Assembly (NCBI RefSeq): GCF_051859625.1
Contig: NZ_JBHYFH010000003.1
Span: 310,853-374,852 of the forward strand
From: Oceanicaulis sp.
Lineage (GTDB): Bacteria; Pseudomonadota; Alphaproteobacteria; Caulobacterales; Maricaulaceae
Length of the DNA stretch: 64,000 nt
Direction: 5' to 3'
The translations under genes and the position numbers were made by a program. The number at the start of each line of letters is the position of its first letter. Within the stretch, counting starts at the first letter, position 1. Below are positions 4,284-41,142 of this stretch, piece by piece. The notes beneath the pieces are model-generated. The model did no database searches and was not told the DNA's origin. It saw only the letters and a program-made list of their open reading frames with translations.

Positions 4284-4742
4284 CTAAAGCCCGTTCAACT
4301 CCCAGCGGCGGACGGGCTTGGCGTATCCTCCCGAGCTCTCATAGAGCGCTTCGGCGGCTTCGGTTTCAGAGCTGGTCCACATCAGGAAGGTGGCGGGGCT
4401 TTCGCGCACATCCTCGACCACGGCTTCAAAAAGGGCGCGGCCCGCGCCTTCGCCGCGGCCGGCCTTGCCCACGCACACTTCCGCCAGCCAGGCGCCGGCG
4501 CCGCCATGGCCGCTATCATAATAGGCGTGCCAGACCGCATATCCGATGGGCTCGCCATTCGCGGTCGCCGCAACGAGCACATGAAAGCTGGCGTCATGAC
4601 CGAACAGGGTGGTCTTGATGTTTTCCGGGGTGCAGTGCTCGGTTGAATCGCCGACGACTTGATTGAGTTCGCGCGACAGACGCGCGATCGCCGCCGCATC
4701 GCGGGGGCGCGCGGCCCGGACGGTCAGATCTGACTGGCTCAT
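4284..4742 (-). CDS. GNAT family N-acetyltransferase
   Basis: Start reassigned to MSQSDLTVRAARP (AAGGAG RBS); acetyl-CoA motif VGKAGRGEGAGRALF. Confidence 0.8.
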   Translation of the reverse strand: MSQSDLTVRAARPRDAAAIARLSRELNQVVGDSTEHCTPENIKTTLFGHDASFHVLVAATANGEPIGYAVWHAYYDSGHGGAGAWLAEVCVGKAGRGEGAGRALFEAVVEDVRESPATFLMWTSSETEAAEALYESSGGYAKPVRRWELNGL

Positions 4743-38681: not shown

Positions 38682-39704
38682 ATGAACTTCCTGTCCGACA
38701 CCACCGCACCCGCCCATCCCGCCCTGCTGGACGCGCTCGCCCGCGCGAACGAGGGCTTCGTCCCCAGCTACGGAGCCGACCCGGTCAGCCAGACTGTGAA
38801 GCGCCAACTCTGCGAGCTGTTCGAGACAGAGCTTGAGGTGGTCTTCACCGTCTCGGGAACGGCCTCCAATGCACTGGCCCTGTCGGTGTTGTCTCCGCCG
38901 GACGCCATGGTGCTGTGTCATGACGAAGCGCACATCCATCGTGATGAACGCGGCGCGCCTGAGTTTTTCACGCGCGGCGCCAAAGTGCTGCCGCTGGCGG
39001 GCGAGCACGCCAAAATCCATCCTCAGGCGCTGGCCGATGCGCTGAAACAATGGCCCAGTGATTTCGTCCACGCCACGCCGCCCGCCGTGCTCAGCCTGTC
39101 CCAGCTCAACGAGTCCGGATGCGCGTACACGCTGGGCGAACTCGACGCCTTGATCGGCCAGGCGAAAGCGCGCGATCTGTTCGTGCACATGGACGGTGCG
39201 CGCTTTTCCAACGCGCTGGTCTCGCTGAGCTGTACGCCCGCCGAGATGACCTGGAAACGCGGCGTGGACGCGCTGAGCCTCGGCGCCACCAAGAACGGCG
39301 TCATGGCCAGCGAAGCGATTATCTTGTTTCCTTCAGTGCAGGATCGCCTGCCACACCTTCTCGCCAATCAGAAGCGCGCCGGTCTGATGCTGCCCAAGAT
39401 GCGCTATGTGTCCGCCCAGATGGGCGCCTGGCTGGAGAAGGATCTCTGGCTAGAGCTGGCGCGACGGGCCAACGCCGCGGCGAAGCGTCTGTCAGACGGG
39501 CTGGCGGCCGTAGACGGCGCCGCGCTGGTGCATCCCACCAACGGCAATGAAGTCTTTATTCGCCTGGAGGACGCGCTCGCGGCTCGCCTGCGCGAGGCGG
39601 GCGCAGGCTTCTACAGCTGGCCGGACGGCTCAGCCCGCTTCGTGACGAGCTGGTGTACGACGGACGCAGACATCAGCGCCTTGCTGGAAGCTGCGCATTC
39701 ATAG
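38682..39704 (+). CDS. ltaE: Low-specificity L-threonine aldolase
   Basis: MNFLSDT, SYGAD, GTASNAL, AHIHRDERGAPEF, HMDGARFSNA, GATKNG. Confidence 0.88.
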   Translation: MNFLSDTTAPAHPALLDALARANEGFVPSYGADPVSQTVKRQLCELFETELEVVFTVSGTASNALALSVLSPPDAMVLCHDEAHIHRDERGAPEFFTRGAKVLPLAGEHAKIHPQALADALKQWPSDFVHATPPAVLSLSQLNESGCAYTLGELDALIGQAKARDLFVHMDGARFSNALVSLSCTPAEMTWKRGVDALSLGATKNGVMASEAIILFPSVQDRLPHLLANQKRAGLMLPKMRYVSAQMGAWLEKDLWLELARRANAAAKRLSDGLAAVDGAALVHPTNGNEVFIRLEDALAARLREAGAGFYSWPDGSARFVTSWCTTDADISALLEAAHS

Positions 39705-39779
39705 CGCGTATCGCTAACCGTAATCATAGCCTCTAAGGCAGAAGCGGCTCACAAGACCGCCTCTGCCTCAGCGGATGGC

Positions 39780-40070
39780 TTAAAGGCCAAACTCAGAACA
39801 ATCGAAGATCTCGGGTATGCCGCTGCTATCGCGGCAAACCACTGCTCCGCAACTCAATTCACCTGTGATGGGATCGGGCAGCCAGAAGACTTCACAGTTA
39901 CTGGGCACACCGCTTCCTGTACGAATACGAGCGATCTCATCCGAGCTCAAGCGTTTGGACACTGAACTACTCTGCTCGCTCTGGATGGGCTGGTTCTCGA
40001 CCTTGTCAGCCCCGTCAGAACCCAATGCGCCTAGCGCCAAAGCCAATGAAACGGCGAATACTGAAAGCAT
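39780..40070 (-). CDS. Small secreted four-Cys protein, paralog 1 (96 aa)
   Basis: GAGGAG RBS, signal peptide, clear paralogy with 40253..40540. Confidence 0.8.
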   Translation of the reverse strand: MLSVFAVSLALALGALGSDGADKVENQPIQSEQSSSVSKRLSSDEIARIRTGSGVPSNCEVFWLPDPITGELSCGAVVCRDSSGIPEIFDCSEFGL

Positions 40071-40212
40071 GAGACACTCCTCTCGGGTCAAAAAGACACG
40101 ACTCAGAAACGGAGCTTTCAAGGCTCACAAGAGTCCGCAAGCGATCAAACAACCTTACAGACGCCCATCCAAGCCACTGATAAAAAGACACAACCGAAAC
40201 CAAGCGGTCCGT

Positions 40213-40242
40213 GTCGGGGACGGCGGTCTCCGCGTCCCCGAC
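40213..40242 (-). terminator. GC-rich hairpin between the paralogs
   Basis: GTCGGGGACG...CGTCCCCGAC, no strong U-tract. Confidence 0.45.
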
Positions 40243-40252
40243 CCGAGAACCG

Positions 40253-40540
40253 CTAGAGTCCGAACTCCCAGCATTCATGTAGGGACCAGACACCGCCCGG
40301 CGGGCGGCAGATGACATAGTCGCACTGCTGGTCGCCTGTAACCGGCTCCAGGCCGGAATAAGCTTCGCAATACGATGGCAGCTGGCCGGGGATCAGGCGC
40401 GTCAGCTCCGCCGAACTCAATCGCTTGGACAAGTCCACGGTCTGCTCGGCCTGTGCGGGCTGCACCGGGACTTTATCCTTGAAATCGGCGTCCGGCGCGC
40501 TGAAGGACAGCGCCATGGAGACAGTGATGAGCGTAAGCAT
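40253..40540 (-). CDS. Small secreted four-Cys protein, paralog 2 (95 aa)
   Basis: GGGAG RBS; shares SKRLSSxE, PSxCE, PxTG, CxxVxC and CxEFGL with paralog 1. Confidence 0.8.
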   Translation of the reverse strand: MLTLITVSMALSFSAPDADFKDKVPVQPAQAEQTVDLSKRLSSAELTRLIPGQLPSYCEAYSGLEPVTGDQQCDYVICRPPGGVWSLHECWEFGL

Positions 40541-40632
40541 GTCGGTCACTCCCTATTCAATCAAGAAGGGAACCGTGACACGGATTACGGGAAATACAAT
40601 CCCTTAAACGCGAATTTTTCAACCAGCAGGGG

Positions 40633-41142
40633 TTAGCCCTTGCCTTCTTCCTTATCGCCGATACGGCGGAAGGGACCGGCATAGCGCGGGTCCTGGCGGC
40701 GACGGCGGTCAGGTCCGAAATAGCCCGGCGTCTTCACAAAGCGACGCGGCTTTTCGATCAGCGTCACCAGGCGATTATACAGATCCACCGGCCGGACCGG
40801 CTTGGCGAGATATTCGTTCACGCCCGCATTTATCGCCTCAAAGACTTTCGAGCGGTCGGTATGGCCTGACACCATGACGATCGGCAGATATTTGTTCGGG
40901 CTGTCGGACGCGGTTCGGATCAGCCGGGTGAATTCCAGCCCGTCCACATCGCCGAGCATGTAATCGACCAGCGCCAGATCCGGATTGGCGTTGCGCATCA
41001 GCTCGAAAGCGTCCGCCGCATCGCGGGTCTCGATCACCGAGCGCACCCCGAAGCCCTGCAGAATCGTGCGCAGGATCGAGGACATGTGGGCGTTATCCTC
41101 AACGATGAGCACCCGAATTCGTTCAAAACTGCCTTGAGACAT
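40633..41142 (-). CDS. CheY-like receiver with Arg-rich tail (Cle-like)
   Basis: LIVEDN, ALVDYML, LAKP; tail YFGPDRRRR...YAGPFRR. Confidence 0.8.
   Translation of the reverse strand: MSQGSFERIRVLIVEDNAHMSSILRTILQGFGVRSVIETRDAADAFELMRNANPDLALVDYMLGDVDGLEFTRLIRTASDSPNKYLPIVMVSGHTDRSKVFEAINAGVNEYLAKPVRPVDLYNRLVTLIEKPRRFVKTPGYFGPDRRRRQDPRYAGPFRRIGDKEEGKG

Follow-up and report, generated by a model that had tools for sequence, protein, structure and literature searches.

The window analyzed here, a stretch of 64,000 nucleotides of Oceanicaulis DNA, contains two small genes in tandem on the minus strand. We call the copy that adjoins a response-regulator gene B and the distal paralog A. The genes and the regions of their products are listed below.

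40253-40540, minus strand: gene B, copy adjoining the response-regulator gene, 95-aa precursor; ATG at 40540, stop codon at 40253-40255
40496-40540, minus strand: B residues 1-15, short hydrophobic segment resembling a signal peptide, no Lys or Arg; candidate signal-peptidase site between SFS and AP, from hydropathy and the -3/-1 rule
40427-40495, minus strand: B residues 16-38, variable acidic Pro/Gln-rich linker, predicted to be disordered (pLDDT <50)
40385-40426, minus strand: B residues 39-52, KRLSSAELTRLIPG, with the family-invariant L-S and the LSxxE(L/I) helix-start motif
40256-40384, minus strand: B residues 53-95, predicted four-Cys acidic beta domain (C58, C73, C78, C90) ending in EFGL; net charge -5
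39780-40070, minus strand: gene A, distal paralog, 96-aa precursor; ATG at 40070, stop codon at 39780-39782
39915-39956, minus strand: A residues 39-52, KRLSSDEIARIRTG, helix-start motif as in B, from alignments
39783-39914, minus strand: A residues 53-96, predicted four-Cys acidic beta domain, from alignments; net charge -6

The first-pass annotation had described a tandem pair of paralogs here, and both the coordinates and the paralogy held up. The two proteins align end to end by BLASTP with one gap (42 of 96 residues identical, 44%, E 5e-27). All of the motifs that had been named were found, including DKV..QP.Q.EQ, SKRLSSxE(L/I)xR(L/I)xxG, four aligned Cys, and the C-terminal CxEFGL, and the tails after the motif Gly are 43 aa in B and 44 aa in A as described. 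Orthologs of B are 60-88% identical to it and orthologs of A 58-98%. The sequence AGGGAG lies 8 nt upstream of the B ATG, and GAGAGGAG lies upstream of the A ATG. A mechanical listing of ORFs extended B to a GTG at 40549 and A to a TTG at 40121. These longer starts are unlikely, since an in-frame TAG stands ahead of B in the window and the upstream frame is not kept in orthologs (it differs in locus L005); the TTG and GTG starts upstream of B were dropped. We also took the overlapping ORFs listed as antisense, at 39817-40314 (plus strand) and 40015-40317 (minus strand), to be spurious because codon-level constraint falls on the A and B frames. A and B are real genes under purifying selection. 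The GC3 of A is 0.57 and that of the neighboring genes 0.72-0.82; B is among the latter at 0.78, which is typical for the genome. The low GC3 of A could mean recent import or recombination from a relative with lower GC, or weak codon selection.

The family to which A and B belong had not been recognized from the sequence, and database searches led to the same outcome. Scans of both proteins against Pfam, NCBIfam, and PADLOC gave no family match, and a profile search of PDB sequences returned nothing relevant, the best hit (E 0.047) being to a stretch of acetyl-CoA synthetase. Among 5.8 billion proteins there are about 35 clusters of the family; word-indexed searches of this set returned 9 and 7 clusters, and 24 when a profile was the query. 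When 1.84 billion representatives were searched exhaustively with a profile, there were 13 hits, 2 of which were repetitive false positives. The only named carriers among species-representative genomes are Oceanicaulis alexandrii ac9, Oceanicaulis sp. MMSF_3324, and HTCC2633. Of the 27 species genomes of the GTDB genus, 7 have members; a sample of 93 genomes from 25 other genera of the same taxonomic family had none. Searches of plasmids and phages with tblastn gave no matches, and a scan of metagenome contigs with a narrow alignment added only three loci, all resembling HTCC2633. From these searches the family appears to be rare, accessory, orphan, and almost restricted to one genus.

To describe the N-terminus, we compared 41 members of the family. 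All 41 have a hydrophobic segment of 12-20 aa ahead of the motif, and this is followed by sites that obey the -3/-1 rule. The h-region has a mean Kyte-Doolittle value of 2.1-2.8 over 10 residues and small residues are present at -3/-1. In A the candidate signal-peptidase site falls between ALG and ALG or between LGA and LGS. Lys or Arg occurs in the n-region of 11 members, which are distant ones, and several of these (P0021, P0023, P0024, P0028) have canonical signal peptides. The other 30, including A and B, have no Lys or Arg before the hydrophobic stretch and a signal-like segment of only about 14-17 aa, and the positively charged n-region of a type I Sec signal is absent from both A and B. 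The genome of the window encodes DsbB and several proteins of the DsbA family. We infer that the family is exported by the Sec pathway; the window copies carry what looks like a somewhat atypical signal. The two products had been called secreted. The export-type N-terminal segment stands, and because it is short and without a basic residue in the window copies, we treat export of A and B themselves as plausible on sequence grounds. The linker that follows is acidic and rich in Pro, Gln, and Ala across the family and is its fastest-evolving region.

Helices that begin with a hydrophobic staple plus a capping box carry the signature [hydrophobic]-[S/T/D]-x-x-[E]-[hydrophobic] at the N-terminus. 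This pattern occurs in 39 of the 41 members, and the L and S of LSxxE(L/I) are invariant in 32 aligned sequences. A short helix was placed at residues 43-47 by the second of two AlphaFold2 runs (pLDDT 60-69); it was not in the first model. The spacer from the motif to the first Cys differs in length by only a few residues across members. The resemblance of LSxxE(L/I) to a bacteriocin leader is best explained as an ordinary helix-start motif. That the L-S and the helix are strictly conserved while the cores diverge could just as well mean that a processing enzyme or a partner docks there.

Across the family the tail is 30-48 aa long and begins at a conserved (L/V)P-x-x-C. Its four aligned Cys are invariant, 39 of the 41 members have exactly four Cys, and the core carries a net charge of -3 to -9 in every member. 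Structure prediction of the cores had been proposed as a check, and the two AlphaFold2 runs agree on a compact beta domain with a three-stranded sheet and a short C-terminal helix (pLDDT about 90). The register and layout of the strands suggest that the disulfides pair C1 with C3 and C2 with C4. A Foldseek comparison of the two models with the PDB gave no fold neighbor (best E 1.8 and 2.1).

We estimated dN/dS by the Nei-Gojobori method from codon alignments of the eleven Oceanicaulis-type sequences with retrievable DNA. In B orthologs the values were 0.31 for the signal segment, 0.40 for the linker, 0.13 for the KRLSS..G motif, and 0.05 for the Cys core. In A orthologs they were 0.39, 0.79, 0.08, and 0.11, respectively. 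The motif and the core thus range over 0.05-0.13, and the linker, at 0.40-0.79, has the highest value of the four regions in both groups. Between the paralogs the core is the most diverged part, with 40% identity, the KRLSS segment having 57%, in agreement with the strong divergence between the Cys residues that had been noticed at the outset. A core that is constrained within each group and diverged between paralogs fits, at the level of sequence, duplication followed by specialization. Many RiPP and bacteriocin families have a conserved leader and a free-running core. Because the core here is strongly constrained within orthologs and diverged between paralogs, this family shows the opposite pattern.

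The usual site of the family lies between a gene for a 169-aa CheY-type receiver, upstream on the same strand, and a convergent Beta_elim_lyase (threonine-aldolase-like) gene on the other side; in most carriers uvrB is found beyond the receiver gene. By domain, the neighbors in the window are a CheY-type receiver, Beta_elim_lyase, DUF2147, DUF418, and UvrB. Copy number at this site ranges from 0 to 4. There is one copy in L003, L004, L005, L017, L022, and L024, and these single copies are of type B, C, or A depending on the carrier. The window has two. Locus L021 has three, in the order B-type, an intermediate type that we call C, and A-type, and the more distant L006 and L019 have four each. 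In a metagenomic strain the single copy (L023:1331-1621) has an in-frame stop in the linker and is probably a pseudogene or a sequencing error.

The genes are missing from one close relative, and the segment concerned is as follows.

39698-40633, no strand assigned: 936-bp segment with both genes, absent from the close relative G088 (blastn of the window against locus L025)

In G088 (L025, 1494-1501) the receiver is 99% identical, the stop codons of the aldolase-like and receiver genes overlap, no intergenic DNA is left, and there are zero copies of the family. Because these stops overlap, 39698-40633 of the window has no counterpart there. The 936-bp segment is a clean presence/absence polymorphism. 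Several copies are mosaics. A B-like N-terminal part is joined to an A-like core in P0013, P0014, and L022, and the middle copy of L021 has an A-like N-terminal part and motif with a core that leans toward B. These mosaic paralogs point to recombination between tandem copies.

Members were also found in other contexts (L007, L016) and, without the receiver, in L010 and L015. In the loci examined no second gene is conserved beside family members, and in none of them is there a further conserved ORF between the regulator and aldolase-like genes. The adjacent receiver (40633-41142, minus strand, 169 aa), which ends YFGPDRR...YAGPFRR, is of the Cle type and is probably a c-di-GMP-binding regulator of the flagellar motor. 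A functional link between this regulator and the small genes was considered and dropped: the regulator is nearly identical in genomes without them, and some members lie in unrelated contexts. Because the receiver also occurs in family-free genomes and members occur elsewhere, we see no evidence for functional pairing. A second receiver paralog was seen in each of four other genomes of the genus that we checked.

In L006 (236-998) and L019 (3727-4199) the interval from uvrB to the receiver gene contains tiny ORFs of 60-68 aa. Their products consist of a signal peptide and, immediately after it, PPGC-x8-10-C-x3-4-C-x8-10-C, without an LSxxE segment. Comparison of their profile with the family core by hhalign gave a probability of 34% (E 4e-4), which is only suggestive, and ORFs of this type had no match in the window's genome. 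Judged by their sequences, they could represent the family's four-Cys module lacking the helix segment. Homology would mean that the core can occur in the absence of that segment, which fits a removable pro-region and the gain or loss of a domain equally well.

Sequences around the two genes suggest how they might be expressed, and the candidate elements are given here.

40615-40624, minus strand: GGTTGAAAAA box, conserved upstream of regulator-proximal copies (9 of 9 orthologous upstream regions); candidate -35
40549-40554, minus strand: Shine-Dalgarno AGGGAG of B; TTCCCT at 40567-40572, farther upstream, could pair with it in a conserved 5' UTR hairpin, as read from the sequence
40213-40242, minus strand: G+C-rich inverted repeat then a T-run after B, terminator-like, between B and A; a scan flags the adjacent site at 40209-40192
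39737-39767, no strand assigned: inverted repeat between the convergent A and aldolase-like genes, probable two-way terminator, as read from the sequence

The box upstream of regulator-proximal copies has the consensus GGTTG(A/C)AAAA, and we regard GGTTGAAAAA as the candidate -35 region of a promoter belonging to these genes. A scan of the locus for consensus promoters found nothing, and an Rfam scan gave only a chance miRNA match. In orthologous leaders the Shine-Dalgarno sequence has a possible pairing partner in TTCC(C/T)(C/T), and the two would enclose an invariant TTGATTGAA loop. Over nine such leaders the consensus fold is weak (-2.9 kcal/mol, with double changes at 2 of 11 pairs), so this pairing is a possible element of translational control with weak support from folding. 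The terminator-like repeats after B and after A suggest that the two are separate transcription units.

The likeness that had drawn attention to these genes is to double-Gly leader peptides, and it extends over several positions. The recognition consensus of such leaders is Leu(-12)-x3-Glu(-8)-Leu(-7), with the leader ending in GG, GA, or GS, and recognition by the double-Gly peptidase involves the hydrophobic residues of a helix at -4, -7, and -12 (PMC6363468). The amphipathic helix, the hydrophobic residues at -12, -7, and -4, the Glu at -8, and the terminal Gly are shared with the leaders of class II bacteriocins, competence pheromones, and the Nif11 and NHLP RiPPs, which are substrates of PCAT/AMS transporters. 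When the motif Gly is set to -1, both B (...LSSAELTRLIPG) and A (...LSSDEIARIRTG) fit at -12, -8, -7, -4, and -1; B has Pro and A has Thr at -2, where double-Gly leaders have Gly. Shifting the register by one residue breaks the helix positions in both. The full double-Gly pattern is present in only 4 of the 41 members, all of them distant and none a window copy, and 24 match only up to a single Gly. This Gly is missing from many members and is not conserved in the family.

On the strength of this alignment, A and B could be class II bacteriocin or pheromone precursors whose cleavage and export depend on an ABC transporter with a peptidase domain, encoded elsewhere in the genome. Peptidase_C39 (PF03412) has no match in the window's genome (G000, 100% complete), and the same search matched 7 control genomes. 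Two other carriers (G102, G111) also lack the domain and three (G048, G103, G110) have C39 transporters, so the family and C39 do not occur together consistently. Double-Gly leaders stand at the extreme N-terminus without a Sec signal; in all 41 members here the motif comes after a hydrophobic segment of Sec type. Bacteriocin-leader HMMs of Pfam and NCBIfam gave no match up to E 10, no linked immunity gene was found in the loci examined, and there is no RiPP modifying-enzyme or exporter gene among the neighbors in the window, as had been said originally, the other contexts being unrelated to each other. The cores are acidic. For the window's genome this explanation is largely refuted, and we give it hardly any credence. 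Because of the missing C39, the residue at -2, the Sec-type segment, the lack of an immunity gene, and the anionic cores, we conclude that the likeness does not indicate that A and B belong to the double-Gly class and that what they share with it is generic, namely a capped amphipathic helix followed by a flexible linker that contains Gly. The proposed double-Gly leader therefore fails as a mechanism. What remains of the overall interpretation, as far as sequences can tell, is small, Cys-stapled products of an unrecognized family that are probably exported. An LSxxE(L/I)...G string by itself does not indicate a double-glycine leader.

The reading that we favor, with slightly more confidence than doubt, is that A and B are exported by Sec, oxidized by the Dsb system, and act outside the cytoplasm as acidic binding mini-proteins with paralog-specific cores. 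The precursor would be exported by the Sec pathway and signal peptidase I would remove about 14-17 residues. In the periplasm DsbA and DsbB would oxidize the four Cys to two disulfides. This would give a product of about 80 aa with a disordered acidic tail, a short amphipathic helix with its start set by the hydrophobic staple and capping box of LSxxE(L/I), and a compact, strongly acidic beta domain of 41-44 aa. The product would serve as ligand or inhibitor, each paralog having a partner of its own, and would be neither pore-forming nor a double-glycine bacteriocin. The helix segment would be the element held in common and the core the element of specificity. Tandem duplication, loss, and recombination between copies would then generate the variation between strains.

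Another possibility begins in the same way, except that after Sec export a putative periplasmic or extracellular protease would read the KRLSSxE(L/I) helix and cut near the Gly, freeing a diffusible signal or inhibitor of 41-44 aa with two disulfides. Apart from the Cys, no positions are conserved more widely than the L-S and the helix motif, in spite of divergent cores, and the linker from helix to core is short, rich in Gly, Ser, and Ala, and variable in length, all of which would suit a cleavage site, as would the four members that match the full double-Gly consensus in register. The short ORFs of L006 and L019, with a similar four-Cys module directly after the signal peptide, suggest that a core can stand alone. 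However, no cleavage residue is conserved, the Gly is absent from many members, and no protease gene is linked in any of the contexts examined. A nearly neutral linker upstream, next to a motif under as much constraint as the core, would be expected just as much if the motif were a structural part of the mature protein. We regard release of the core by a protease as unlikely, although it deserves attention. A more elaborate form of this idea is a Sec-exported pro-peptide system in which a helix like that of double-Gly leaders has moved behind a signal peptide, an extracytoplasmic protease frees anionic two-disulfide peptides as strain-specific signals or inhibitors in the algal phycosphere, and recombination shuffles a common address module against variable message cores; we consider this speculative and improbable. 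Finally, the hydrophobic stretch might be an uncleaved membrane anchor or no export signal at all, with the four Cys as metal ligands on the side of the cytoplasm or the membrane. In the window copies the signal-like segment is indeed unusually short and lacks Lys and Arg, but relatives with canonical, cleavable signal peptides have the same domain. The Cys spacing of x14, x4, and x11 (with shorter loops in distant members) contains no CxxC knuckle, and beyond the four Cys there is no conserved pattern of His or Cys ligands. An anchored or unexported metal-binding protein seems a doubtful alternative, with a small chance of being correct.

The exported acidic mini-protein that we favor can be compared with several known systems. 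Heat-stable enterotoxin precursors of enteric bacteria, which we compared by name only, have the architecture that the first-pass annotation proposed, with a signal peptide, a pro-region, and a small Cys-rich core oxidized by DsbA in the periplasm. Unlike these, A and B show no similarity to them in sequence or fold (Pfam, NCBIfam, PDB), have beta-domain cores of 41-44 aa, and would undergo processing of a pro-region only as a proposal; their host is a free-living or alga-associated marine bacterium. Enterocin P and lactococcin 972 are also small proteins exported by the general secretion pathway, but bacteriocins of that type are cationic or neutral, have immunity or ABC genes beside them, and fall into defined families. 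None of these traits was seen for A and B. Small secreted cysteine-rich proteins of fungi and oomycetes, which are a concept more than a single family, resemble A and B and their relatives in being lineage-restricted, tandemly expanded, and rapidly reshuffled disulfide proteins, although they come from a different kingdom without homology and the analogy holds for evolutionary behavior only. If our reading is true, A and B belong to yet another lineage-specific family of small disulfide proteins that are exported, and their fold is without a solved neighbor. The population pattern, in which one chromosomal site has between zero and four copies and the paralogs are mosaic, is unusually clear. 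The family should be of interest for associations between Oceanicaulis and algae and for the mining of bacterial mini-proteins, and it opens no long-standing question.

The surroundings of the site also vary among carriers. Directly beyond the aldolase-like gene, L003 (9448-11790), L022, L023, and L024 have a gene for a 780-aa chemoreceptor (NIT-HAMP-MCPsignal), in which a weak PilZ hit was obtained for L022 and L024. In the window the DUF2147 and DUF418 genes adjoin the aldolase-like gene at the place where several relatives have the chemoreceptor. In the metagenomic relative L006, IS481-type and DUF4096 transposase genes (1204-2778 and 4316-4633) are interleaved with the four family copies. 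Thioredoxin-like and DsbB genes lie a few kb downstream in L006, and a thioredoxin-like gene lies downstream in L019.
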